Shown here: positions 9,124-34,347 of the stretch, in pieces
Numbering within the stretch: the first letter of the stretch is position 1
How the letters are laid out: each line of letters starts with the position of its first letter
Source: a virus
Lineage: Duplodnaviria; Heunggongvirae; Uroviricota; Caudoviricetes
Reading direction: 5' to 3' (one strand)
DNA length: 34,347 nucleotides
IMG/VR virus record: IMGVR_UViG_2718218396_000008
Notes under the pieces: generated by a model
Told to the model about the DNA's origin: nothing
The model's input: only the letters and a program-made list of their open reading frames with translations
Databases searched by the model: none
Made by a program: the position numbers and the translations under genes

Positions 9124-9822
9124 TTACTGCGAAAGTTTGTTAATGGAAAGGAAGCCGCCAAAGTTGCCGACGTTATTGCGGAACTTACAACCGCTCAGGC
9201 ATTTGCTGCATTTATCCTTCGTGATATCGGACGTTGGCTGGTCATATTCATCCGCGACCGCCGGACCGTGATAACCGCACTCATCGCCGCGATAGGTCCA
9301 GGTGCAGGTGTTGGCCAGCATGATACGTCCCGGAAAAACAGCGCCGTCCGTTTCCGTCGGCGTGGACAGTACAAAAGAGGCACTCACCGCGCTCAGTTCG
9401 CTGCACTGCTCAATGCGCCAGCGGCTGATCACCTCCTGCTCCGGATCGGCGTCACTGTTTCCGTTGACGAAGTTCACCGCATCCAGAAAACGGGCGTAAA
9501 CCTTACGCCGGACCACCGTTCCGCCGACCAGACTCTGCAGATCTTCCGCCATCCCGGTGACCATACCGTACAGGTTAGAAACCGTCAGCGTGGGGCGCGT
9601 ACTGGTGCCTTTGCCATTCAGTTCAAAACCACTCCCCTGAATGGGATACGGCTGATACTGTCGCCCCTGCCAGGTGACCGGCTCACCTTTTTCGTTCTGC
9701 TCATTACAGAAAAAATAACGTTCTCCACCGACCTCTGTCAGATCGATTTCCCAGAGCACCACGCTGGCCGACTGCTCCGCACGGGTGCATTCATTCAGTG
9801 TTTCCTGCCGGATATCCTGCAT
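9124..9822 (-). CDS. L: Tail tip assembly protein L
   Basis: 232-aa ORF, lambda gpL length; Cys cluster near the C-terminus (CSKCLSGCKF). Confidence 0.93.
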   Translation of the reverse strand: MQDIRQETLNECTRAEQSASVVLWEIDLTEVGGERYFFCNEQNEKGEPVTWQGRQYQPYPIQGSGFELNGKGTSTRPTLTVSNLYGMVTGMAEDLQSLVGGTVVRRKVYARFLDAVNFVNGNSDADPEQEVISRWRIEQCSELSAVSASFVLSTPTETDGAVFPGRIMLANTCTWTYRGDECGYHGPAVADEYDQPTSDITKDKCSKCLSGCKFRNNVGNFGGFLSINKLSQ

Positions 9823-10151
9823 CAGTTCACCACCTGTTCAAACTCTGCGCTGAACTCAACACGCAGCATACTGACCCGCGACGACCATTTTGCGCAGGTC
9901 ACCTTTATCTGCCGCCACTCATAAGGCGGCGTCCACAGAAAGGCCTTCCAGCCCCCGTGCTCAGCCAGAAACGACTCAAGCGCCGTGGCCTCCCAACGGG
10001 GAACAGAAAGCGTCACGCTGTACGTTTTCAGGTCGGCATTCAGCCCGGCAGGCGCTCGCTGGGAATAGCCATCACCAAAGCGCACCTTTCTTACGGAAGG
10101 GGCCGAAGCCACATCCATACCGGGTTTCACTTTCCAGCGGAAGGTTTTCAT
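9822..10151 (-). CDS. M: Tail tip protein M
   Basis: 109-aa ORF, lambda gpM length; overlaps the H stop and L start. Confidence 0.93.
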   Translation of the reverse strand: MKTFRWKVKPGMDVASAPSVRKVRFGDGYSQRAPAGLNADLKTYSVTLSVPRWEATALESFLAEHGGWKAFLWTPPYEWRQIKVTCAKWSSRVSMLRVEFSAEFEQVVN

Positions 10152-12697
10152 CGTCCACCTCCGGAGAACAGACCACCATCGCGCATCTGCCCGGTCACAA
10201 CATCCATTGCCGCCTTACGGGCTACGTCATAAACCGCCTTCAGTGCCTGTGGCCCTATCTGACCGTTCGTGCCGTCGTTGTTAATCACCACATGGTTATT
10301 CTGCTCAAACGTCCCGGACGCCTGCGACCGGCTGTCCGCCATGCTGCCCGGTGTACCGACATAACCGCCGGTGGCATAGCCGCGCATCAGCCGGTAAAGA
10401 TTTCCTACGCCAATCCGGCTGGTTGCCTCCTTCGTGAAGACAAATTCACCACGGTGAACAATCCCCGCTGGCTCATATTTGCCGCCGGTTCCCGTAAACC
10501 CTCCGGCCGCAAAATGGAATTTCGCCGCAGCTGCCTGAATGGCTGTACCGCCTGACGCTGATGCGCCGCCGCCAATGGCGCTGCCTATACTTCCGACAAT
10601 CCCCACCATTGCCTGCTTAAGCAGAATTTCTGTCATCATGGACAGCACGGAACGGGTGAAGCTGCGCCAGTTCTGTTCACTGCCGGTCAGCATCGCCGCC
10701 ATATTCTGTGCAATACCATCAAAGGTCTGCGTGGCAGCACTTTTAACCTGCGACATACTGTCCGTGGCGCTCTCTTCCCACTCACTCCAGCCTGACCTGA
10801 GGCCTGCCATCCAGCTCCCGCGAAGCTGGTCTTCAGCTGCCCAGGTCTTTTTCTGCTCTGACATGACGTTATTCAGCGCCAGAGGATTATCGCCATACTG
10901 TTCCTTCAGGCGCTGTTCCGTGGCTTCCCGCGCTGCCTGCCGGTCAGTCAGCCCCCGGTTTTTTGCATCAATGGCGGCCCGTTTTGCCCGTTGTTGCTGT
11001 GCGAATTTATCCGCCTGCTGTGCCAGCGCGTTCAGGTGCTCCTGATAGGTGACCTTGTCGCCAAGTACAGCCAGCTGGCGTTTGTACTCCAGCGTCTCGT
11101 CTTTATGCGCCAGCAGGGATTTCTCCTGTGCGGACAGCTGGCGACGTTGTGCCGCCTCCTCCAGTACCGCGAACTGACTTTCTGCCTTCCACAAATCCCG
11201 GCGCTGCTGGCTGATTTTCTCATTCGCTCCGGCATGCTTCTCCAGCATCCGGAGTTCTGCCTGAAGCGTCAGCAGGGCAGCATGAGCACTGTCTTCCTGA
11301 CGATCGCCCGCAGACACCTTCACGCCGGACTGTTTCGGCTTTTTCAGCGTCGCTTCATAGTCCTTTTTCGCCGCCGCCATCAGCGTGTTGTAATCTGCCT
11401 GCAGGATTTTCCCGTCTTTCAGTGCCTTATTCAGTTCTTCCTGACGGGCGGTATATTTCTCCAGCGGCGTCTGCAGGCGTTCGTAAGCCTTCTGCGCCTC
11501 TTCGGTATATTTCAGCCGTGACGCTTCGGTATCGCTCTGTTGCTGCGCATTTTTGTCCTGTTGACTCTGCTGCTCAGCCTTCTTTCGGGCGGCTTCAAGC
11601 GCAAGACGGGCCTTTTCACGATCATCCCAGTAACGCGCCCGCGCTTCATCGTTAACAAAATAATCATCCTTGCGCAGATTCCAGATATCGTCCGCTTTCT
11701 TAAACGCGGCCTCTGCCTTAATCAGCATCTCCTGCGCGGTATCAGGACGACCAATATCCAGCACCGCATCCCACATGGATTTGAATGCCCGTGCTGTCCT
11801 GTCTGCCCAGGTTTCCAGCGTGCCCATGTTCTCTTTCAGGCGGCGGGTCTGGTCATCAAACCCTTTCGTCGCGGCCTCGTTCGCCGCCTGCAATGCCCCG
11901 GCTTCTTCGCCGGAACGCTGCAACTGAGCAACATACGCAATCTGCTCCGCCGTCACGTTATGGAACTGGCGCGCCATCGCTGTCAGCCCCGACGTCGGGT
12001 CAGTGGTCAGCTTCCCGAAGGCTTCAGCGACCTTGTCCACCTCCACGCCTGATGCAGAGGAGAAACGCGCCACACTCTGGCTGATGGACGCAATCTGAGC
12101 CTCACCGCTTACCCCCGCCTTAACCAGTGCGCTGAGTGACTCGCTGGTCTGGTTAAACGTCAGCCCTGCCGCCTGCCCGGCTCTGGACAGGACCAGCATA
12201 CGATCTGCCGTCAGCCCGGCCTGATTGCCGGAAAGGACCAGCGTTTTGTTGAAATCGGACAGGGTTGAGTTGCCCTGATACCAGGCATACGCCAGCGCAC
12301 CGGTCGCCACCGCCAGCGAGGTGGCCCCCACCATCGGCAGGGTGATCGCACCGGCAAGCCCCCGGAACATGGGGATCATCCCGCCGAAGGAGTCCTTCAC
12401 CTGCCCCCCCTGTTGCAGCAGGATCAGCCACGGACTTTGCCCACCTGCAAGCTGCGTGGCCACGTCAGTGAACTGCGCAGGCAGCATACGCATGGCGGCT
12501 TTATACTGCCCGACGGAAATTCCCGCTTTCTGTGCAGCCAGCGCCTGCCGGCTCATCGACTGTTCAACGACTGCCGCTGTTTTTTTCGCATCACTTTCCG
12601 TACCGGAAAAATGACGCCTGACTCTGGCCATCTGCTCGTCAAATCTGGCCGCATCCAGACTTAAATCAACGACCAGATCGCCTACCGGTTCAGCCAT
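10148..12697 (-). CDS. H: Tail tape-measure protein H
   Basis: 849-aa ORF; long coiled-coil-rich centre, Gly-rich C-terminal region; recognised as lambda gpH (853 aa in lambda). Confidence 0.95.
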   Translation of the reverse strand: MAEPVGDLVVDLSLDAARFDEQMARVRRHFSGTESDAKKTAAVVEQSMSRQALAAQKAGISVGQYKAAMRMLPAQFTDVATQLAGGQSPWLILLQQGGQVKDSFGGMIPMFRGLAGAITLPMVGATSLAVATGALAYAWYQGNSTLSDFNKTLVLSGNQAGLTADRMLVLSRAGQAAGLTFNQTSESLSALVKAGVSGEAQIASISQSVARFSSASGVEVDKVAEAFGKLTTDPTSGLTAMARQFHNVTAEQIAYVAQLQRSGEEAGALQAANEAATKGFDDQTRRLKENMGTLETWADRTARAFKSMWDAVLDIGRPDTAQEMLIKAEAAFKKADDIWNLRKDDYFVNDEARARYWDDREKARLALEAARKKAEQQSQQDKNAQQQSDTEASRLKYTEEAQKAYERLQTPLEKYTARQEELNKALKDGKILQADYNTLMAAAKKDYEATLKKPKQSGVKVSAGDRQEDSAHAALLTLQAELRMLEKHAGANEKISQQRRDLWKAESQFAVLEEAAQRRQLSAQEKSLLAHKDETLEYKRQLAVLGDKVTYQEHLNALAQQADKFAQQQRAKRAAIDAKNRGLTDRQAAREATEQRLKEQYGDNPLALNNVMSEQKKTWAAEDQLRGSWMAGLRSGWSEWEESATDSMSQVKSAATQTFDGIAQNMAAMLTGSEQNWRSFTRSVLSMMTEILLKQAMVGIVGSIGSAIGGGASASGGTAIQAAAAKFHFAAGGFTGTGGKYEPAGIVHRGEFVFTKEATSRIGVGNLYRLMRGYATGGYVGTPGSMADSRSQASGTFEQNNHVVINNDGTNGQIGPQALKAVYDVARKAAMDVVTGQMRDGGLFSGGGR

Positions 12698-13124
12698 ACC
12701 GGACTCCTCCTGCGATCCCTTCTGATACTGTCATCAGCATTACGTCATCCTCCGTCATGTCCGCCACATCCGGGGAAGCGGGGATAACTTCATTCCCGTC
12801 CGGGCCAAAACGAACGCCTCCAGCAAGCCCTGCCGCTTTCTGCATCAGCACATCATCTTCAGGCTCTTCGTCAGCCTCACGCCGGTTCAGCAGACTGAAA
12901 TCCAGCGGATGCATATCCGGATCGCTGAAAAACAGGCTGAGCACGGTGTACGTCAGCCCGGAAAAGTGCATATCCAGCAGAACATCATGAAAATAATGGG
13001 TACTGTAAAAGCGGTGCCAGTCGGCATACTCCGTGGATGACATCCCGGCAAGCATGGCACGCCAGTCGGGTCGCCCCATCTCGCGCGCCAGTTTCAGGGC
13101 AAAACTCAGCTCACCGTCGAACAC
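12690..13124 (-). CDS. T: T segment of tail assembly chaperone GT, expressed as a G-T fusion by -1 programmed frameshift
   Basis: ORF in the -1 frame relative to G, beginning inside the G 3' end; overlaps the H start; read-through sequence ...VFDGELSFALKLAREMG. Confidence 0.85.
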   Translation of the reverse strand: MFDGELSFALKLAREMGRPDWRAMLAGMSSTEYADWHRFYSTHYFHDVLLDMHFSGLTYTVLSLFFSDPDMHPLDFSLLNRREADEEPEDDVLMQKAAGLAGGVRFGPDGNEVIPASPDVADMTEDDVMLMTVSEGIAGGVRYG

Positions 13125-16078: not shown

Positions 16079-17104
16079 TTACGCCAGTTGTACGGACACG
16101 AACTCATCAGGGTCAGCCAGCAGCATCAGCGGTGCTGACTGAATCATGGTGAACTCACGCGCCGGATCGCCGGTGGTCACCCAGTTTTTCGGGTAACGGG
16201 CAGAGGCGTTAATGCCTTCGCGCTGTGCGTCCGCATCCTGAATGCAGCCATAGGTGCGCAGACCGCGTGCCTGAGTGTTCCCCAGCACCATCGTGTTGTC
16301 CGGCAGGAAGTTCTTTTTGACGCCGTTTTCCACGTACTGTCCGGAATACACGACGATGGCCACATCGCCATACATTCCCTTATAAGACACCGCTTTGCCC
16401 AGGTCTTTTACCGCTGTCTCCAGTTCGGAATGAGAGCCGCGACGGGTATCCAGCTTCTCCCTGACGGCTTTGAAGGAACGGAACAGCGCCCAGCCTTTCG
16501 GGTCAAACACGATGATATTCACCACGCCGCTGGCGTTCAGCGCGTAGGCTTCGATATCGTCGGTCGGGTCATACGTGGACTTGTCACGCTTGCTCCACTC
16601 CGTGCCGCCGGACTGCGTGATGTTGTTCGCCGCACTGCGGCCCATATCCACCTCAACCGGATCGAAGGCTTCACCGGTCATGGTGTATTTGCCCTTGAGC
16701 ACGGCAGAAACTGCCTGCATCTCTTCGACCTGAGCAATGGCCAGCTCTTCGTCACGCATGTTCTGCATGATGATGCGACGGCGGCGGTAAGCCGGGTCCG
16801 CCAGATTCTGCGGATCTTCATCCGGCAGGCGACGCAGGGGCATCTGCGGATTCACTTCATGCTTCGGCTTGACATATCCCGGCGTAAATTCAGAGGTGGA
16901 GCCGCCACGGGAACGGATAACCTCACCAGAAACAATCGGCGAAACGTACAGCGCCATGTTTACCAGTCCCGGAATTTGTGAGAGATAGACTTTCTCCGTG
17001 GTGAAGGGATAGCTCTCACGGAAAAAGAGACGCAGAAACAGCGGATCAAACTTAAATTTCTGCTCATTTGCCGCCAGCAGTTGGGCGGTTGTGTACATCG
17101 ACAT
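16079..17104 (-). CDS. E: Major capsid protein E
   Basis: 341-aa ORF starting MSMYTTAQLLAANEQKFKFDPLFLRLFF, lambda gpE length and sequence. Confidence 0.96.
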   Translation of the reverse strand: MSMYTTAQLLAANEQKFKFDPLFLRLFFRESYPFTTEKVYLSQIPGLVNMALYVSPIVSGEVIRSRGGSTSEFTPGYVKPKHEVNPQMPLRRLPDEDPQNLADPAYRRRRIIMQNMRDEELAIAQVEEMQAVSAVLKGKYTMTGEAFDPVEVDMGRSAANNITQSGGTEWSKRDKSTYDPTDDIEAYALNASGVVNIIVFDPKGWALFRSFKAVREKLDTRRGSHSELETAVKDLGKAVSYKGMYGDVAIVVYSGQYVENGVKKNFLPDNTMVLGNTQARGLRTYGCIQDADAQREGINASARYPKNWVTTGDPAREFTMIQSAPLMLLADPDEFVSVQLA

Positions 17105-27763: not shown

Positions 27764-27926
27764 GATTCCTCCTTGCTGCCAGTCGCAACCATTTTTTATC
27801 AACCAGGCTGGCGGTATATCCGAGCAGTGTTGGTATTTCGGATGGCTTCAGCTCAGGTTTACGCTTACGACGATTTGGTACTTTGTAGATGTGTCCGTTC
27901 ATGACACGAATAAGCGGTGTAGCCAT
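27756..27926 (-). CDS. ninE: NinE-like small basic protein (56 aa; not in the ORF track)
   Basis: Manually translated [56 protein letters not shown]; ATG overlaps the ybcN stop (TAATG) and its TGA overlaps the ybcO ATG (ATGGCTGA). Confidence 0.65.
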   Translation of the reverse strand: MATPLIRVMNGHIYKVPNRRKRKPELKPSEIPTLLGYTASLVDKKWLRLAARRNHG

Positions 27927-28381
27927 TACGCCTCCTGCTTGTCACGCAGCAGCTGGAACTCGCAGCTCTGTGGAATAGTCAGGTGGCAGCCAATATTCAT
28001 CGCCCAGGCTTCAACCTTACACAGGAAGACATACATCTCTCCGGTACCAAGATCGGAGGTATGGCGTAACGACTGGATAGTAGTGATTTCGCCGGTTACG
28101 ACATCAACCAGGTCCTTGGTTTCATAACCGAGGTATGTGTGTTTGAGAGCATCTTTTACCCATGCTGAAGTAGCGAACGATTTCCCCCTGCTGATGAGGT
28201 ATTCACTGATTTCGCTGTACCACATGTGGCTGAGTGCATTCTGGGAAAGACTGCGTCTCTCGCGCCACGGTTTAAGCACCATGCGAAAGCATTTGCCGTC
28301 TTCCAGATAAGTCTGGATCTGCTGACCGACAGCGGTGAAGTTACCGCGATGTAATTTGATGCCATCTTGTGGGAGGTTCAC
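27926..28381 (-). CDS. ybcN: NinB/Orf-family protein (YbcN-like, 151 aa; GTG start)
   Basis: [15 protein letters not shown]...[19 protein letters not shown] recalled as DLP12 YbcN; motif RSLxQN shared with lambda NinB. Confidence 0.8.
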
Positions 28382-28476
28382 GCTTCACCTCCGCAGAGAT
28401 CAAACGCTGGATGCAAGACATCGCAGGTGCATTTCTGCATCTGTGACAAGGTAAGGAGTTCAGATTGTGGTCGCAT
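28378..28476 (-). CDS. ylcH: Small ORF (32 aa, YlcH-like) translationally coupled to ybcN
   Basis: Manually translated [32 protein letters not shown]; RBS AAGGGGA upstream; stop TGA overlaps the ybcN GTG (GCGTGAAC). Confidence 0.45.
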
Positions 28477-28500
28477 TTAAGTCCCCTTAAATGCGCAGAA

Positions 28501-28529
28501 GTCACCGGAGTTGTTCAAGCTCCGGTGAC
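28501..28529 (-). terminator. Stem-loop upstream of the nin operon (tR2-like position); weak U-tract
   Basis: Perfect 10-bp inverted repeat GTCACCGGAG-(9 nt)-CTCCGGTGAC. Confidence 0.35.
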
Positions 28530-28571
28530 ATTATTATGGAAGGTTGATACTAAAAAATCAAAAATTGAATA

Positions 28572-28763
28572 TCATTGGCGATAGTCTAGCTTGTGATATC
28601 CACAAGCTACTTCAATGAAGCGACGAGTAACATTTTGTGTCATCCATGTTTTTTCAGTTAAGTGCCACACCCAGTTCAAAATTTGCTGATGTGTTGAACA
28701 TGTACTAAGCGGGATGTTGTATTCATAAGCAACATTGATTCCGCAAAATCGGTGTCGTGTCAT
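28572..28763 (-). CDS. Hypothetical 63-aa ORF (possible gene remnant)
   Basis: ORF without a convincing Shine-Dalgarno; no recognisable family; sits where DLP12 carries ybcL/ybcM. Confidence 0.25.
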   Translation of the reverse strand: MTRHRFCGINVAYEYNIPLSTCSTHQQILNWVWHLTEKTWMTQNVTRRFIEVACGYHKLDYRQ

Positions 28764-28882
28764 GACCGATTCACGTTGACCTGCGCCCTGTTGAGTGCCT
28801 GGGGATATTCTTGCTCGATAGTTAATATCATAGTAGTTACTTTACTTTCATACCATAGCACGGTTGAAAAAGTGATTATTAC

Positions 28883-30409
28883 TCAAAAATAAACCTCACC
28901 ATCAACCATATATTTGAGAGCACTTATCGCCTGCTGGGCGGATATTACTTTCATTAAAGGATAGTGTTTAAAAACAATGCCATTCATAAAATAGATATCA
29001 CAGGTTTTATTATCCGTATTAATTATGATTTTTTCGAATATTTTATAGGCAAGTGTACGGCATAACTCTCGTCCATTTTTACTGGTTAAGTCAATAGCAT
29101 AAAAATCACTGAATGAATTTACACCTTTACTCTTCAAAGTTTTCAATGATACCAAAGCTCTTCGTAATTCCTTATCTAATAGTCTTATTTTCTCTGCTAT
29201 AGCGGTAACTTCAGGCGCGACAGACAATGCAACGATTAAATTATTAATTTTCATCTGAAGCTCAATAATTTTTAACTCTAAAGTTTCATTAGCATCTTTC
29301 TTGTTTTCAACTGGTTGAATTTTGCTACAATTAAAAAGCAATTCATTAATGATATTATAATCAACCAAATCTCTCTTTATTGATGGCCTGTCACATCGAT
29401 GTAATCTTCTCATCGGACAAACATAATAGCCATGCAAACTTCCAGATACCGCATGAACAATCATGGTATTACCACAAGCCTCACACTTCATAACTGTTCG
29501 AAGTAGATTTATTAGCATAGGATTCTTGCTACTATTGCTAATACCAAAAGGTGCCAACCGAATTTCCTGTACAGCGTAAAACAAATCATCTGATATGACT
29601 CTGGGATAATAGCCAGCGATTTCACTTATCCCTTTCCCTCTTGCACGATATGAAGGTACGCATATACCTATCAGAGCTTTATTCGCTAATAATTTTTCAA
29701 TTACAGAAGGCCCCCATGCACTTTCTTTTCCTGAGAAATTCTTTACAGCATGATCATTTAAATACTTGGCTATTGCATTCAATGAGCGCCTTTCCATCCT
29801 GAGTTTAAAAATTAGCTCAATAGTTTTCACCCTGTCGGGGTCTGGAACAAAAGCCGTTCTTTTGTCATCTAAGGAGAGCCATCTCGGACAAGACGCCGTC
29901 ATAATCGTACCTGATTCCAGTGCATCCTGCCGTTTTTTCTTCCATGATAATTTAACCCGACTTGACTTTATCTCGCTTTCTTCATTTGCCCTTTGTGCTA
30001 TAAGTATGGCTTTTATTAATGAATATGGCTCATTCAAAGAGTCAATATTATAGACTGTATTGTCGCAAAGAGTTATAACATCAATACCGTGATTCAAAAT
30101 CAATTTCAGACGTTCAATCGCTTCACCGACTTTTTCTCTTGAAAGTCTGTCCAGACTTTCAACTAACAATGTAGTTCCTGGCAATATATAACCATGCTCT
30201 ATAGCATCTAAAAATTCCGAAAAAGCTCCTGATTGTGCATGCTTTCCTTTGAATGCACTTAATCCTAAATCTTCATATGTTATGGTATCAAGATAATAAT
30301 CACTATTTACCTTTAACCATTCAGCAATAAGTCTTCTCTGTCGGTTTAATGAGTCGCCAGACATCTGACCTGGTGATGAAAATCGCATATATGCTATGGC
30401 TTTTTTCAT
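28883..30409 (-). CDS. ybcK: Large serine recombinase (YbcK-like, 508 aa)
   Basis: N-terminal resolvase-type catalytic motif (AIAYMRFSSPGQ...R), recombinase domain, Cys zinc ribbon (CEACGNTMIV...YYVCPMRRLHRC) and C-terminal coiled coil; ATG at 30409 with AGGTG SD; AT-rich gene. Confidence 0.85.
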   Translation of the reverse strand: MKKAIAYMRFSSPGQMSGDSLNRQRRLIAEWLKVNSDYYLDTITYEDLGLSAFKGKHAQSGAFSEFLDAIEHGYILPGTTLLVESLDRLSREKVGEAIERLKLILNHGIDVITLCDNTVYNIDSLNEPYSLIKAILIAQRANEESEIKSSRVKLSWKKKRQDALESGTIMTASCPRWLSLDDKRTAFVPDPDRVKTIELIFKLRMERRSLNAIAKYLNDHAVKNFSGKESAWGPSVIEKLLANKALIGICVPSYRARGKGISEIAGYYPRVISDDLFYAVQEIRLAPFGISNSSKNPMLINLLRTVMKCEACGNTMIVHAVSGSLHGYYVCPMRRLHRCDRPSIKRDLVDYNIINELLFNCSKIQPVENKKDANETLELKIIELQMKINNLIVALSVAPEVTAIAEKIRLLDKELRRALVSLKTLKSKGVNSFSDFYAIDLTSKNGRELCRTLAYKIFEKIIINTDNKTCDIYFMNGIVFKHYPLMKVISAQQAISALKYMVDGEVYF

Positions 30410-30653
30410 GGTGACACCTGCTAACTTATGCTTTTATAAACCTTAGTGGTGAGATATAATTTTTGTTTAATTTTTATTTAAAAAGACAATTACGATCACA
30501 CTATCTTGAATATACAACAATAATCGTATTGCAATTTGCTTACGCAATAATCTTGAAGGCACAAAAGAATACACAAAAACTAAAAACATTAACAAAAGCG
30601 GCCCATGTAAAGATATGAACCGCCATATTGCAGTCTTTTAAAAGAAATTATTT

Positions 30654-30986
30654 TTAATGTGGTGTGCTTCGTGACAATAAATTAATAACCAACACACCGG
30701 CACAAATCAACATCATGCCTATAACGGCTGGCAGGTCCAGCCGTTGGCCGAAAAACCCCCATGATAGTAAGCTAATCAGGACAATACCGACTCCTGACCA
30801 GATAGCATAAGCAATCCCTGTAGGAATATAAGCCAGCGTCTGAGCTAATAACCAGAATGATGCACAATAACAAATAATTGTACCAACAGATGGCCATAAC
30901 CGTGTAAAACCTTCTGAAAACTTCATTAAGGTTGTACCAATGACCTCTGCAAGTATTGCACCACCAAGATAAATATAAGGGTTCAT
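30654..30986 (-). CDS. emrE: Small multidrug resistance (SMR) efflux transporter EmrE
   Basis: 110 aa from internal ATG (MNPYIYLGGAILAEVIGTTLMKFSEGF..., four TM helices, conserved Glu14); recognised as E. coli EmrE. Confidence 0.92.
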   Translation of the reverse strand: MNPYIYLGGAILAEVIGTTLMKFSEGFTRLWPSVGTIICYCASFWLLAQTLAYIPTGIAYAIWSGVGIVLISLLSWGFFGQRLDLPAVIGMMLICAGVLVINLLSRSTPH

Positions 30987-31053
30987 AACATATTCTTTCC
31001 TGTTCAAACTGGAGAGAATTGTACTACAGTTTGAACTCAACTCACCTGTTTCA

Positions 31054-31356
31054 TCATTGTGTACCCATTGATGTTCTTTTATATACCCTCAATACCCGTT
31101 TCATCGCGGCACTCTGGCGACACTCCTTAAAAATCAGATTCGTGCTCACCTTTCCTTCCCGTTCTTCTCTGGTAGCGAACCGGTAATACACCGTTCGCCA
31201 GACCTTACCATCAACGACCAGGATTCCTGCCCGCGCCATTTTAGCCGCAGCCTGATTTATGCTGGTTACGGTTGCACCTGTTACCGCGGCAACGTCCTGT
31301 GCACAGAAGCTCTTATGCGTCCCCAGGTAATGAATAATTGCCTCTTTGCCCGTCAT
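31054..31356 (-). CDS. ren: Ren protein (Rex exclusion protection)
   Basis: 100-aa ORF MTGKEAIIHYLGTHKSFCAQDVAAVTGATVTSINQAAAKMARAG, lambda Ren; start overlaps the P stop. Confidence 0.88.
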   Translation of the reverse strand: MTGKEAIIHYLGTHKSFCAQDVAAVTGATVTSINQAAAKMARAGILVVDGKVWRTVYYRFATREEREGKVSTNLIFKECRQSAAMKRVLRVYKRTSMGTQ

Positions 31357-32054
31357 ACACTTGCTCCTTTCAGTCCGAACTTAGCTTTAATTTCTGCGAT
31401 CTTCGCCAGAGCCTGTGCACGATTTAGAGGTCTACCGCCCATAACAGGAAGTTGTTTTACTGGTTCAGGTATCGTCTCACCACGGTTAATTCGCGCTGTC
31501 ATACAGGTCAGTTCATCGGCAGCCTTGCGCCGTAATTCCGCGTCAGTCAGCGCATTGGCCCGCATGTTCTGGTACAAGTTGGTAACCAACCAGTAATGCG
31601 CGTTCGATTTCCACGGATAAGACTCTGCATCCGGATACAGGCCACGCTTCCGGCAATACTCGTAAACCATATCAACCAGCTCGCTGACGTTTGGCAGTCC
31701 GGCGATAACGGATGCTTCTTCCCGGCACCATGCAACAAACTGCCCGGGTGATGGCAGAAATGGTCGATTCTGCCGACGGGCTACGCGCATTCCTGCGTTA
31801 ACCTGTTCCATTGTGGTGATCCCGTTTTCCCGGAAAGCCAGAACCCACTGGCGGCGGATTTCGTTCAGTTCGTTCTGGTCACGGTTAGCCAGACTCGCCG
31901 GGAAAGTTGCCAGTAACTGGCTGAACACACCGTTGATGATCTGCGCTACCTGCTGTACCTGCGGCTTTTCGTCGTACTGTTCCGGCATGTTGTTGGCGAT
32001 CCGACGCATCTGCTCACGGTCAAAGTTAACCATCTGTGCGGCGATGTTTTTCAT
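31353..32054 (-). CDS. P: Replication protein P (DnaB helicase loader)
   Basis: 233-aa ORF MKNIAAQMVNFDREQMRRIANNMPEQYDEKPQ..., lambda P length and sequence. Confidence 0.95.
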   Translation of the reverse strand: MKNIAAQMVNFDREQMRRIANNMPEQYDEKPQVQQVAQIINGVFSQLLATFPASLANRDQNELNEIRRQWVLAFRENGITTMEQVNAGMRVARRQNRPFLPSPGQFVAWCREEASVIAGLPNVSELVDMVYEYCRKRGLYPDAESYPWKSNAHYWLVTNLYQNMRANALTDAELRRKAADELTCMTARINRGETIPEPVKQLPVMGGRPLNRAQALAKIAEIKAKFGLKGASV

Positions 32055-32875
32055 AAATCCACCCCGTAAATCCAGTCAGTGTTTGTCAGGTCGAGTTTTG
32101 GTTTGCTGGCTATCATGCCTGCCTGTTGCTTGTTACGGTTGATTTCGAGCTGGGTCCACTTGTCGCGGAGTTTGGCCGGACTTAGCACGTTACCGGACCA
32201 GAAGTTGTCCTGGCATGCCCAGCGGAACAGCACGCACATGTCGCGGTGGTTACGTCCGTCACGTTCACGCATCAGGCGGATATCGTTAGCCCACCCTGCA
32301 AAATTCGGTTTTCTGGCTGATGGCGCGATGGTCTTCACCATGTCAAACATCCACTCTGCGGCGGTCAGGTCTTCTGCTGTCCCCCACTTGCTGCCGCTCT
32401 GAATTGCAGCATCCGGTTTCACCACAGGAAGATCGTTTTCTGGTTGGTCAGAGGATTCGCCAGAATTCTCGGACGAAAAAGGTTTTATATTGTCTTTTGT
32501 TAGTTTGTCTTTTGTGTTTACCTGATTCGGGTAAACGCCTTTACCTGATTTGGGTAAACTTTTTTTACCTGATTCAGGTAAATTTACCTCTTTCAGGTAA
32601 ACTTTATTTTTCTTACCTGATTCGGGTAATGTTGACCATTCACTGACCACATTATTAATGCCGGTATTCCGCCCGCTCTGAATAAAAATCCCACGCTTTA
32701 CCAGAACACTTTTTGCAGCAGAACACTTGTGCGGCAATATCCCGGTTAATTCGGAAAGTTGCTCGTTGCTAACCCAATCCAGTTTTTTATTAAAGCCATA
32801 TGTTTTGCGCATGACAGCCAGAAAGACCAGAAGCTGGTGAAAAATTGATAAATTCAATACTGCATTTCTCAGCAT
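32051..32875 (-). CDS. O: Replication initiator O (lambda-like C-terminal half; divergent and shorter N-terminal DNA-binding part, possibly 5'-truncated)
   Basis: C-terminal ~150 aa (SSDQPENDLPVVKPDAAIQSGSKWGTAEDL...TNTDWIYGVDL) match lambda O; in-frame stop 8 codons upstream of the first ATG; N-terminus ~35 aa shorter than lambda O. Confidence 0.8.
   Translation of the reverse strand: MLRNAVLNLSIFHQLLVFLAVMRKTYGFNKKLDWVSNEQLSELTGILPHKCSAAKSVLVKRGIFIQSGRNTGINNVVSEWSTLPESGKKNKVYLKEVNLPESGKKSLPKSGKGVYPNQVNTKDKLTKDNIKPFSSENSGESSDQPENDLPVVKPDAAIQSGSKWGTAEDLTAAEWMFDMVKTIAPSARKPNFAGWANDIRLMRERDGRNHRDMCVLFRWACQDNFWSGNVLSPAKLRDKWTQLEINRNKQQAGMIASKPKLDLTNTDWIYGVDL
32518..32630. repeat. Replication origin iterons (five ~18-19 bp copies of TTACCTGATTCGGGTAAAC-like repeats) inside O, with adjacent AT-rich tract at ~32470-32517
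   Basis: Five direct repeats, each an internal inverted repeat (TTACCYGA...TCRGGTAA); they encode the repeated PESGKK/LPKSGK linker of O. Confidence 0.8.
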
Positions 32876-32978
32876 TAAATTTATCTCTATGACCAGTCAA
32901 GAGATGTACCTGCCATGAGCTTAATATCATGTCAGATATATCGGTCACAAACTCCCTCAGCAGCTAAGAGGAGGACAA

Positions 32979-33215
32979 ATGTCTCGACTAATCACTTTAC
33001 GGGACTGGGCTAAAGAAGAATTTGGGGACTTAGCACCAAGTGAGCGAGTTCTGAAAAAATACGCGCAAGGGAAAATGATGGCCCCACCCGCTATAAAAGT
33101 TGGTCGCTACTGGATGATTGACCGAAATTCCCGTTTTGTAGGAACGCTTGCAGAACCGCAACTCCCAATAAACGCAAACCCAAAACTCCAACGGATAATC
33201 GCTGATGGCTGCTAG
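32979..33215 (+). CDS. Putative excisionase / small DNA-binding protein (non-lambda Xis type)
   Basis: 78-aa ORF with strong SD (AAGAGGAGG) immediately upstream of int and overlapping it by 11 nt. Confidence 0.5.
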   Translation: MSRLITLRDWAKEEFGDLAPSERVLKKYAQGKMMAPPAIKVGRYWMIDRNSRFVGTLAEPQLPINANPKLQRIIADGC

Positions 33216-34347
33216 CCCCCGATCTCACAAAATCTCTATACCCAATTTATATTGCAAATTAGATAAGCGAACCGGAAAGGTATATTGGCAATACAAACAT
33301 CCACTATCCGGTCGTTTTCATAGCTTAGGAACTGATGAGAATGAAGCAAAACAAGTTGCTACTGAAGCAAATACCATTATTGCTGAACAACGTACCCGAC
33401 AAATATTAAGCGTCAATGAGCGTCTGGAAAGAATGAAAGGCAGGCGCTCAGACATTACGGTGACAGAATGGCTTGATAAATATAATTCTATCCAGGAGGA
33501 CAGGCTGCAACATAATGAACTAAGACCCAACTCCTATCGGCAAAAAGGCAAACCCATCCGTCTTTTCCGTGAGCATTGTGGAATGCAACACCTCAAGGAT
33601 ATTACCGCACTTGATATTGCCGAAATAATTGATGCTGTAAAGGCTGAAGGTCATAACAGGATGGCGCAAGTCGTGAGAATGGTGTTGATCGACGTCTTCA
33701 AAGAAGCACAACACGCAGGACATGTTCCGCCAGGATTTAACCCAGCGCAGGCAACAAAACAACCGCGAAATCGAGTAAACCGCCAAAGATTATCACTGCC
33801 CGAATGGCAGGCAATATTTGACAGCGTAAGCAGACGGCAGCCCTATTTAAAATGCGGGATGCTACTTGCTCTTGTCACTGGACAACGTTTAAGCGATATC
33901 TGCAATTTGAAATTCTCTGATATCTGGGACGACATGTTGCACATTACTCAGGAAAAAACCGGTTCAAAACTTGCTATTCCGCTTAACCTGAAATGCGATG
34001 CTCTGAATATTACCCTTCGTGAAGTTATATCTCAGTGCAGGGATGCTGTTGTTAGTAAATATCTGGTCCATTACCGTCACACTACCTCTCAAGCAAACAG
34101 AGGAGACCAGGTGTCTGCAAATACTCTTACAACGGCTTTTAAAAAGGCCAGGGAAAAATGTGGCATAAAATGGGAGCAAGGAACTGCGCCCACATTTCAT
34201 GAGCAGCGATCTCTGTCAGAACGGTTATATCGGGAACAGGGTCTGGATACGCAAAAGTTGTTAGGTCATAAATCCAGAAAAATGACCGACCGATACAATG
34301 ATGATCGTGGTAAAGACTGGATTATCGTAGATATCAAAACAGCATAG
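33205..34347 (+). CDS. int: Tyrosine site-specific integrase (lambda Int family)
   Basis: 380-aa ORF; N-terminus MAASPRSHKISIPNLY resembles lambda Int; C-terminal catalytic region HEQRSLSERLY...LLGHKSRKMTDRYNDDRGKDW carries the conserved R...HxxR...Y residues; stop is the last codon of the window. Confidence 0.9.
   Translation: MAASPRSHKISIPNLYCKLDKRTGKVYWQYKHPLSGRFHSLGTDENEAKQVATEANTIIAEQRTRQILSVNERLERMKGRRSDITVTEWLDKYNSIQEDRLQHNELRPNSYRQKGKPIRLFREHCGMQHLKDITALDIAEIIDAVKAEGHNRMAQVVRMVLIDVFKEAQHAGHVPPGFNPAQATKQPRNRVNRQRLSLPEWQAIFDSVSRRQPYLKCGMLLALVTGQRLSDICNLKFSDIWDDMLHITQEKTGSKLAIPLNLKCDALNITLREVISQCRDAVVSKYLVHYRHTTSQANRGDQVSANTLTTAFKKAREKCGIKWEQGTAPTFHEQRSLSERLYREQGLDTQKLLGHKSRKMTDRYNDDRGKDWIIVDIKTA

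Follow-up and report, generated by a model that had tools for sequence, protein, structure and literature searches.

The locus raises the question of whether an intact large serine recombinase (LSR), found in an AT-rich island of a lambdoid prophage, mobilizes or inverts the DNA around it, or whether it is a passenger in a slot where such phages exchange accessory genes. The window, i.e., the whole stretch of 34,347 nucleotides that was analyzed, carries ren, emrE, a ylcJ-like ORF, ybcK, and a 63-amino-acid ORF on its minus strand. The initial annotation had placed emrE, a 508-amino-acid LSR, and the 63-amino-acid ORF between ren and the nin genes, and all of these features were recovered. It had also described the cargo as AT-richer than its flanks and the corresponding slot of lambda as free of genes, and both descriptions hold: the GC content of positions 28477-31053 was 0.364 compared with 0.49-0.50 in the flanking nin and ren-P-O genes, the lowest value among 636 segments of the same length across the 34-kb window, while the interval from ren to ninB in lambda spans only 73 bp and contains tR2. 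Searches with Rfam and with the PADLOC defence models returned no matches. The features of the locus are as follows.

31054-31356, minus strand: ren (RefSeq annotation of the identical O157:H7 record; boundaries from blastn and MAFFT)
30654-30986, minus strand: emrE, an SMR multidrug efflux transporter of 110 amino acids from the RefSeq start
30597-30624, minus strand: terminator-like hairpin with a U-tract, directly 3' of emrE (terminator scan)
30410-30589, minus strand: ybcK leader, including a 40-amino-acid ylcJ-like ORF at 30467-30589 (RefSeq hypothetical protein)
28883-30409, minus strand: ybcK, an intact LSR of 508 amino acids (Pfam, PHROG, and AF2)
28817-28882, minus strand: 66 bp downstream of the ybcK stop codon (blastn block boundaries and per-segment identities)
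28783-28821, minus strand: 39-bp relic of a P22AR-C gene (blastn to loci L006 and L008; junction comparison)
28564-28816, minus strand: 253-bp segment largely restricted to O157:H7-type genomes, holding the 63-amino-acid ORF at 28572-28763
28533-28561, minus strand: nin-side joint, with the dyad TTGAT-N8-ATCAA at 28544-28561 (alignments of 7-11 cassette types)
28501-28529, no strand assigned: hairpin with a 12-bp stem (terminator scan, alignment, and comparison with lambda tR2)
27926-28476, minus strand: ylcH-like small ORF (28378-28476) and ybcN, the start of the conserved nin block (RefSeq)

The island sequence is 100% identical to that of the icd-adjacent lambdoid prophage of E. coli O157:H7, in which emrE and ybcK are annotated. 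A tyrosine-type pair of xis and int occupies positions 32979-34347 at the icd-proximal end of the prophage, and O, annotated without its N-terminus, lies 140 bp from xis. The icd prophage of O157:H7 is now defective. The unit formed by the 3' end of ren, emrE, ylcJ, and ybcK is inherited as a whole in approximately a quarter of complete E. coli genomes as well as in viable phages. In the K-12 prophage DLP12, the arrangement is ren'-emrE-ylcJ-ybcK-ybcL-ybcM-ylcH-ybcN, so that the two prophages agree in order from ren to ybcK and in the nin genes that follow, and the ybcK DNA of the two prophages is 99.3-99.5% identical. In contrast to DLP12, which is located at argU, the prophage at icd lacks ybcL-ybcM and carries the 253-bp segment with the unannotated 63-amino-acid ORF in their place; its ylcJ ORF is shorter, and the region of the emrE terminator has diverged. 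The likeness to the emrE-ybcK region of DLP12 that was noted at the outset is therefore supported by gene order and identities, with the exception of ybcL-ybcM. The island is the already known and annotated emrE-ybcK cargo of DLP12-type prophages and not a new kind of element.

The same ren-emrE-ylcJ-ybcK arrangement was found at the same place in the lambdoid isolates Lambda_4A7 (Bievrevirus), Turner, 1W, and PhiR68_2, whose YbcK proteins are 97.8-99.6% identical to that of O157:H7. Unlike the present prophage, these isolates are complete and retain the immunity and early-left regions. The cargo after ybcK also differs from that seen here, being an esterase gene in Lambda_4A7 and a P22AR-C-like gene in Turner. 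Lambda_4A7 combines ybcK with the int/xis arrangement of the window and an icd fragment. Because this viable phage has a tyrosine Int/Xis pair in addition to ybcK, YbcK is probably not the integrase of the prophage, and the Int/Xis pair would be the integration system of this type of phage.

Comparison with other lambdoids placed the variable slot at 28564-31089, and the last ~12 codons of ren (31054-31089) are therefore specific to the cassette. The span first proposed, 28477-31053, captured the island but not its true ends. The ren-side mosaic joint lies at 31089/31090 and is common to lambda and other cassette types, the ren gene of lambda carrying the same ...GAAACGGGTATTG up to this point. 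The nin-side joint was kept in every cassette type aligned (7-11 types), and the 12-bp-stem hairpin was kept in all cassette types, including phages without the island. This hairpin had been called tR2-like; it occupies the site of lambda tR2, but its sequence is unrelated. The flanking nin block with the ylcH-like ORF and ybcN is 91-93% conserved in all comparators. Other, unrelated cassettes were found between the same two joints in strain E2 and in loci L102 and L103, and the cargo downstream of ybcK falls into at least seven length classes, all of which end at the same nin-side dyad. No slot much under ~770 bp was found among the 40 best-matching genomes. The ren-nin slot acts as a common hotspot for morons, in which one cassette or another lies between two fixed mosaic joints.

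The island itself resembles lambdoid morons such as bor and lom. It is AT-rich, flanked by conserved phage genes, and replaced or absent in relatives, and its emrE gene has a terminator-like hairpin of its own. Unlike bor and lom, one of the cargo genes here is a complete site-specific recombinase and not a typical lysogen-fitness gene.

Downstream of ybcK, the first 66 bp are common to the Lambda_4A7, EC291, and Turner types, while homology with the K-12 type is gone by 28844. The P22AR-C gene, which follows ybcK in other phages, is reduced here to its 39-bp relic. The 253-bp segment was found in only 308 genomes, with an identity of at least 99% in all of them, and those listed were mostly O157:H7. 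The 63-amino-acid ORF is not annotated by PGAP, and no annotated feature was present in the segment in 24 of the 25 genomes listed. This predicted ORF has a full-length match to PHROG 2559 (E = 4e-51), although tblastn against the phage collection gave no match. The break 66 bp after ybcK was considered as an integron-like capture site and rejected, as the first cargo gene is common to all non-K-12 classes; the idea was further undone by the specificity of the break to the O157 type and by the use of the same outer joints in phages that lack ybcK.

The product of emrE belongs to the SMR transporters (Pfam accession PF00893, E = 3e-35, over residues 21-112 of a 128-amino-acid ORF) and to phrog_1395, a family of the moron category. 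The RefSeq start gives 110 amino acids (WP_001070446.1); the 128-amino-acid, TTG-initiated ORF extending to 31040 is only an upstream extension. The emrE DNA is 97.9% identical to K-12-type emrE, while the spacer around its hairpin (30590-30653) is the most diverged part of the block, with 69-72% identity to other types. At the position of the hairpin, the K-12-type sequence also appeared in the alignment to be stem-forming. The whole spacer at 30410-30653 has a GC content of 0.29, and ylcJ, which is annotated in K-12, is frameshifted in strain EC291. The folding of an inverted repeat upstream of emrE was not significant (z = -1.3).

Because promoter-like sites in the island were no more frequent than in shuffled sequences, we infer its expression logic. 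A terminator that depends on Rho and NusG lies in the untranslated region upstream of ybcK in K-12 (PMC4150792). Normally, ybcK would be made only when N-antiterminated transcription from pR passes both the emrE terminator and the Rho-dependent terminator of the leader. Such readthrough would be impossible in the present prophage, which has lost the N-cI-cro-pR region along with the 5' end of O.

By sequence and predicted fold, YbcK is a complete serine integrase, and the catalytic, zinc-ribbon, and coiled-coil architecture first attributed to it is found in full. The catalytic domain matched PF00239 (Resolvase, E = 5e-19) and contains the motifs YMRFSSPGQ and ESLDRLSR; matches to PF07508 (Recombinase, E = 2e-14), PF13408 (Zn_ribbon_recom, E = 8e-8), and the integrase family phrog_95 (E = 7e-120) were also obtained. 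Residues R9, S11, Q15, D87, R88, and R91 are invariant among 20 members of the family, as are the zinc-ribbon cysteines C309, C312, C331, and C339, and this invariance of catalytic and Zn-binding residues extends over 29-100% identity. The AF2 model (pLDDT 79) predicted a helical hairpin at 369-397/402-427 that corresponds to the coiled-coil motif within the zinc ribbon, and the best Foldseek matches of the model were full-length serine integrases (E = 1.5e-18 to 3e-11). The domain order equals that of solved serine integrases (full-length 9dxd-type, Bxb1, phiC31, and the Listeria A118-type 4kis), i.e., a catalytic domain, a recombinase domain, and a zinc ribbon into which a coiled coil is inserted. 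The Foldseek alignments of YbcK to these structures extended over ~530 columns (E = 1e-18 to 1e-11) with conserved catalytic Ser/Arg but a sequence identity of only 13-20%, and phmmer found no match to YbcK among PDB sequences. Unlike the solved integrases, YbcK has an additional conserved, beta-rich region at its C-terminus (~458-507, phrog_2371), and its gene resides in a phage with a tyrosine integrase of its own.

The substitution pattern indicates that ybcK is under purifying selection, with dN/dS values of 0.07-0.18 that also hold across a dS of 0.13. A full-length gene was present in 79 of 80 IMG/VR viral-contig copies, at least 80% of the gene was present in 1,398 of the 1,424 genomes with a ybcK match, and orthologues of equal length occur in several genera. 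Except for a UmuD-like pair in tail-end contexts, no conserved small neighboring gene was found across 23 related loci. The open-access papers searched describe the function of ybcK as unknown (PMC7181518) and report no recombination assay; likewise, literature searches on ybcK, LSRs in DLP12, serine recombinases of lambdoid nin regions, and emrE/ybcL found no functional study of YbcK as a recombinase.

A search for direct and inverted repeats across 28300-31200, with a shuffle test of the flanks, found nothing above chance. The best inverted and direct flank matches did not rise above the mean obtained from 200 dinucleotide shuffles, in agreement with the earlier failure to recognize an att or inverted-repeat pair by eye, and the adjacent inverted matches I8 and I12 were rejected as not collinear. 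The att sites of LSRs have just a 2-bp core and imperfect dyads in common; because such sites are degenerate, attL and attR may be present within the leader or the 66 bp that follow ybcK even where repeats are absent.

The order P-ren-emrE-ylcJ-ybcK-cargo-nin was colinear in all 80 viral-contig loci, none of which contained an inverted block. The ybcK gene was found in 1,398 genomes, 1,355 of which carry the whole 3.1-kb block, and it was essentially never located away from emrE-ren in the genomes examined. Chimeric flank queries identified neither an empty slot nor a precise excision allele in 5,426 genomes, all of them assemblies, in which low-frequency events are not detectable. Only two of these genomes had emrE brought to the nin joint. 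In wlxctx60 the junction is an ordinary deletion that ends inside ybcK, and the match pattern and annotation of the second genome, UTME-7, are identical. The suggestion in the initial annotation that YbcK mobilizes or inverts a sub-element at this locus was thus not borne out, with colinear loci throughout, ybcK essentially never outside the block, and an ordinary deletion in the one rearranged genome examined. Three signs had been named as telling against it, namely an invariant region, disrupted catalytic residues, and a lack of recombination products; genomic variation is in fact abundant and the catalytic residues are intact, yet no recombination products were present in the assemblies.

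The reading that we favor, with a probability of roughly 55%, is a stack of moron cassettes in the ren-nin slot of a DLP12/lambda-like O157:H7 prophage that is icd-adjacent and defective. In this slot, emrE and its terminator-like hairpin come first, followed by the AT-rich leader and ybcK and then by the 253-bp remnant. The island would have been built and spread by ordinary modular exchange among lambdoid phages and not by YbcK, which may be an accessory recombinase of the phage whose DNA target is outside the interval or has been lost. Several points count against this explanation: it does not account for purifying selection acting on a recombinase for which no target could be identified, YbcK is not tied to a phage function by any site, partner, or phenotype, and a 2.08-kb indel together with LSR-flanking duplications in some relatives would fit an origin by insertion. 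The stack of morons leaves a modest puzzle, namely why a complete serine integrase is kept under strong purifying selection in approximately one in four complete E. coli genomes and in viable lambdoid phages equipped with a tyrosine integrase of their own. If active, YbcK would add a serine integrase of Gram-negative origin and new specificity, useful for genome engineering, and it might reveal a non-integrative role for serine integrases in phage biology.

The 2.08-kb indel came from comparison with a second locus. Most E. coli carry emrE-ybcL-ybcM beside fliE without ybcK, and this locus differs from the K-12 type by a single indel, in that it lacks exactly ylcJ, ybcK, and ~310 bp; the indel starts at most ~10 bp from the emrE stop codon and ends ~310 bp past ybcK. 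It provides the one piece of direct support in this region for a possible but doubtful reading, in which ylcJ-ybcK, with or without cargo, is or was a small LSR-mobilized element with YbcK as its integrase, inserted just 3' of emrE in an ancestral emrE-ybcL-ybcM cassette and now fixed. Some relatives are consistent with such insertion. The LSR and its cargo are flanked by diverged direct repeats of 230-380 bp that represent part of a neighboring gene (DUF1367 in L095, P in L031, and a duplicated small ORF in L033). In addition, relatives with 81-85% protein identity (83% for the pair in question) are located at unrelated positions, one in the nin region and the other next to ssrA at the end of a prophage, and a two-gene module common to L011, L100, and L096 has the LSR on one side in the first two loci but on the other side in the third.

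In E. coli, however, the hallmarks of a nested element, i.e., the same unit in different contexts with precise empty and occupied sites, were not observed. The gene was never found outside the ren-emrE-ylcJ-ybcK block, precise excision alleles were absent from the 5,426 genomes, and terminal repeats or dyads did not exceed chance. At the indel junctions, inspection by eye for att-like dyads revealed only weak AT-rich similarities (GTTTYTARA-like), which were unconvincing. The O157, Lambda_4A7, and EC291 copies have only 39-66 bp downstream in common with the K-12 type and would therefore be without one end of the element, but they are under strong purifying selection nonetheless. A deletion is equally likely at the fliE locus, which has the appearance of a decayed remnant of a phage. 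Ends of the cassette were also sought among relatives of 72-85% identity in different contexts, where homology begins 10-68 bp upstream and reaches no further than the stop codon; this comparison was uninformative, because the faster divergence of non-coding sequence alone predicts the same limit at the stop codon. The LSR transposons Tn4451 and Tn5397 (TnpX and TndX) would be a precedent for a small non-phage element mobilized by an LSR. They form circles, are present at many sites, and possess defined ends that carry a conserved dinucleotide, and none of these traits was seen for ybcK in E. coli.

The wider distribution of the family points to a long-term association with phages, in line with the favored reading. 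In prophages of other Enterobacterales, relatives with 40-85% identity occupy either the same replication/nin boundary, as in lambdoid prophages of Atlantibacter and Pantoea and of metagenomic contigs, or the end that lies past the tail fibres. In a different reading, unlikely on present evidence, YbcK-type LSRs would form a conserved class of accessory recombinases in temperate enterobacterial phages, kept at these two positions and acting in trans on a target in the host, in a competing element, or elsewhere in the phage, and they would not integrate their own element. As a variant, the bare gene may be an LSR cassette that mobilizes itself through recombination sites overlapping its ends.

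It is quite improbable that YbcK serves as a secondary phage integrase, using an attP beside its gene for integration at a second chromosomal site. This role would agree with the full serine-integrase architecture of the predicted fold, the location of ybcK within the early rightward operon, the annotation of relatives with ~30% identity as serine recombinases or integrases in Burkholderia, Xanthomonas, and Gram-positive phages, and the occurrence of relatives with 50-60% identity among the outermost genes of prophages in Atlantibacter, Erwinia, Ewingella, and Yersinia. However, neither the 80 IMG/VR loci nor the E. coli loci inspected included a permuted prophage in which ybcK adjoins host DNA. 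The prophage end distal to the tail fibres is a standard position of morons too and thus offers no proof, and the terminal genes of L096 are two other small ORFs and not the LSR.

Serine recombinases of cryptic prophages are able to invert DNA (PinQ/PinR papers), and several short inverted repeats were listed by the repeat search, but a local invertase or excisionase that flips or deletes a segment of the island as a switch is scarcely credible for a 508-amino-acid protein with integrase-type LSR domains, in contrast to the ~190 amino acids of the Hin/Gin type, given flank matches at chance level and an inverted block in none of the 80 loci. Equally implausible is a non-functional ybcK drifting toward a pseudogene, for which Rho silencing in K-12 (PMC4150792), the lack of a known function (PMC7181518), and occasional IS insertions, truncations, or deletions (H1, O104:H4, wlxctx60, and UTME-7) could be cited, but which is disfavored by the low dN/dS, the 79 intact copies, the invariant catalytic and zinc-binding residues, and the equal-length orthologues.

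The nin-side dyad can alternatively be read as a sigma-70-like element, TTGATT-17-CATAAT, matched in the promoter-like scan. Additionally, bor and a gene of the lom family are present in the same window.

The interval between ren and the nin genes (28477-31053) holds emrE-ybcK, an accessory block already known from lambdoid prophages of the DLP12 type; the finding is real but ordinary. The features of this region were as follows:

31054-31356, minus strand, ren
30654-30986, minus strand, emrE (Pfam SMR family)
30467-30589, minus strand, ylcJ-like ORF of 40 aa
28883-30409, minus strand, ybcK, an ORF of 508 aa (Pfam Resolvase, Recombinase, and Zn_ribbon_recom)
28572-28763, minus strand, ORF of 63 aa
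28501-28529, strong hairpin
minus strand, nin-type genes: ylcH-like, ybcN, ninE, ybcO, rusA, ylcG, and Q

The GC content of the interval was 0.364, the minimum among 636 windows of the same length over the entire 34-kb window, and both flanks had 0.49-0.50. Together with the ORFs and Pfam domains, this confirmed the initial annotation of an AT-rich island carrying emrE and a large serine recombinase (LSR). Additionally, a 13-nt inverted repeat (GTTCAAACTGGAG / CTACAGTTTGAAC) was located in the emrE 5' leader at 31002-31036, where the fold was no better than that of shuffles (z = -1.3) and Rfam gave no match. The block, otherwise 97-99% conserved, diverged most in the spacer at 30590-30653, which includes the emrE terminator hairpin (identity 69-72%, with an indel of 11 nt), and by eye a stem appeared possible in O157 and K-12-type sequences alike.

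The region matched chromosomes of E. coli O157:H7 at 100% identity, and the entire window mapped onto an icd-adjacent lambdoid prophage in which emrE and ybcK are already named by RefSeq. In the comparison proposed with the DLP12 emrE region, the order ren'-emrE-ylcJ-ybcK was common to both, while ybcL-ybcM, which follow ybcK in K-12 DLP12, were absent from the window. In lambda, the slot is near-empty as had been stated, with just 73 bp from ren to ninB, tR2 included; the window hairpin, annotated as tR2-like, resembles tR2 in position but no further. The prophage is defective. Its O gene (32051-32839) is missing the N-terminus, and only 140 bp (32839-32979) separate it from xis/int, so N, cI, cro, cII, pR, and the early-left genes have been deleted. 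Genes for the head, the tail, and lysis appear intact, as do the nin genes.

The slot between ren and the nin genes acts as a general hotspot for cargo, its joints being fixed, and many lambdoids hold alternative cargo in it. Homology with other lambdoids ended at 31089/31090, within the final ~12 codons of ren, and broke again at 28563/28564. The ren-side joint was identical in lambda and in phages with unrelated cassettes, and since it falls at the same nucleotide within ren, the last 8-12 codons of Ren vary with the cassette. This nucleotide, after ...GAAACGGGTATTG (window 31054-31090; lambda 1941-1971), was shared by lambda, the emrE-type cassette, and two further cassette types. In every cassette type examined, the nin-side joint coincided with a conserved TTGAT-N8-ATCAA dyad, after which come CATAAT and the hairpin. 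The arms of this dyad (window 28533-28561), just upstream of the conserved hairpin, were conserved while its spacer differed by cassette, and an alternative reading is a TTGATT-17-CATAAT promoter-like site. Different small genes lay between the same joints in strain E2 and in many more, further O157 prophages among them, and in a joined-flank search the 40 best genomes had no slot under about 770 bp.

Most likely, the emrE-ybcK block was assembled and is still spread through modular exchange between phages, with YbcK a selected accessory serine integrase that has no substrate in this interval, and with ybcK probably stranded transcriptionally in this defective prophage. An origin of the ybcK unit as a nested element appears unlikely. 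The one hint of insertion came from sequence comparison with the fliE locus: most E. coli carry emrE (91-92% identical) beside fliE, as emrE-ybcL-ybcM without ylcJ-ybcK, so that the DLP12 location is a minority arrangement. A single indel of 2.08 kb separates this locus from the K-12 type; it begins no more than ~10 bp from the emrE stop and extends to ~310 bp beyond ybcK. However, a deletion in a decayed fliE remnant is as likely as an insertion, and no att-like dyads were recognised at the indel junctions. In E. coli Ecol_AZ162 (L005, 3483-5342), the neighbours of the fliE locus are an IS200/IS605 transposase gene and fragments of genes.

YbcK-family proteins of ~505-520 aa with 40-61% identity were found in Atlantibacter, Yersinia, Pantoea, Erwinia, Kluyvera, Ewingella, and Citrobacter, in three contexts: the replication/nin boundary of lambdoid prophages (loci L017, L095, L185, L189, L014, and L031); the prophage end past tail-fibre and tail-fibre-assembly genes, by direct annotation in L009, L011 (next to ssrA), L096 (next to lepA), and L100 and by marker matches only in L019/L020 and L026; and large plasmids or a conjugative context (L098, L025, and L028). 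Both phage contexts are classic moron positions. At some loci, diverged direct repeats, each a partial copy of a neighbouring gene, bracketed the LSR and adjoining genes, an arrangement that fits insertion but also mosaic recombination. Repeats 75-84% identical enclosed the YbcK-family gene and a few cargo genes in L095 (DUF1367 5' end, 9623-9851 and 12609-12831), L031 (3' part of P, 9281-9657 and 12216-12592), and L033 (5' part of a duplicated small ORF, 9273-9519 and 16149-16394). Among 72-85% relatives, DNA homology did not extend past the stop codon or more than 10-68 bp upstream, which was uninformative. Beside the prophage-end LSR, a two-gene module encoded an ~80-aa protein and a UmuD-like protein of 107-161 aa with a weak Peptidase_S24 match (L011 6987-7684, L100 9212-9845, and L096 12195-12772), preceding the LSR in two prophages and following it in the third. 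In a Citrobacter koseri contig (L098, 8145-13291), a 50%-identical relative lay next to, and divergent from, the gene of a 555-aa protein that matched Shufflon_N faintly; the context was TraD/MobA, and 324-bp direct repeats (68% identical) stood on both sides.

Local inversion or excision by YbcK, by which it might mobilise or invert a sub-element as first suggested, is disfavoured. P-ren-emrE-ylcJ-ybcK was colinear in all 80 IMG/VR loci, none with an inverted block. Only short, AT-rich repeats were found in the region, and the best direct and inverted matches between the ybcK flanks or between the island ends did not exceed the mean of 200 dinucleotide shuffles, in agreement with the earlier failure to see an att or inverted-repeat pair. 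Searches of Rfam, PADLOC, and PDB sequences gave no match. Only two genomes had emrE brought near the nin joint, and in the one examined, wlxctx60, the deletion ended inside ybcK.

Simple decay of ybcK is likewise disfavoured, and its status as a relic was rejected: the ORF was intact in 79 of the 80 loci, and pairwise dN/dS among E. coli copies was 0.07-0.18, including the copy of the viable phage Lambda_4A7 at dS 0.13. Residues R9, S11, Q15, D87, R88, and R91 and the four zinc-ribbon cysteines were invariant in 20 family members (29-100% identity). The AlphaFold model (pLDDT 79) included a long E-helix, a recombinase domain, and a zinc ribbon, along with a helical hairpin at 369-427, and Foldseek aligned ~530 columns to full-length serine integrases, Bxb1, phiC31, and the A118-type structure (E 1e-18 to 1e-11). 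The full catalytic, zinc-ribbon, and coiled-coil architecture previously assigned is thus also predicted by the model, and given these residues, fold matches, and dN/dS values, ybcK is an intact gene under selection. YbcK is unlikely to be the phage's integrase, since the related Lambda_4A7 has, besides ybcK, genes for a tyrosine Int and Xis as well as an icd fragment, and this int/xis is also present in the window. In Lambda_4A7 (L104, 20875-27584), transposase genes and the sitABCD iron/manganese transporter operon lie between the tail genes and attP, a further large cargo load in the b-region.

Of 5426 complete E. coli genomes, 1424 carried ybcK, 1398 of them with a nearly full-length copy, and the 3.1-kb block with ren and emrE was found in 1355. 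The cargo 3' of ybcK occurred as ybcL-ybcM, a P22AR-C-like gene with variable genes, a 4A7 esterase, or a 253-bp O157 version. A break 66 bp after ybcK was rejected as a common capture site; it is peculiar to the O157 type, because the non-K-12 versions share their first cargo gene, of which (P22AR-C-like) the O157 segment retains a 39-bp relic. This segment was present in 308 genomes, all at least 99% identical and, among those listed, mostly O157:H7; it was without annotation in 24 of the 25 genomes listed.

In the literature searched, no study of YbcK as a recombinase was found. ybcK was described as a gene of unknown function, whose overexpression raised and deletion lowered sabinene tolerance in BL21 (PMC7181518), and in K-12 a Rho/NusG-dependent terminator lies in the untranslated region upstream of ybcK (PMC4150792). 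Occasional inactivation of ybcK was observed, by an IS1203-family insertion in O157:H7 F7386 (NZ_CP038360.1) and by deletion of all except the first ~150 bp in two other strains (NZ_AP045833.1 and NZ_CP169029.1).
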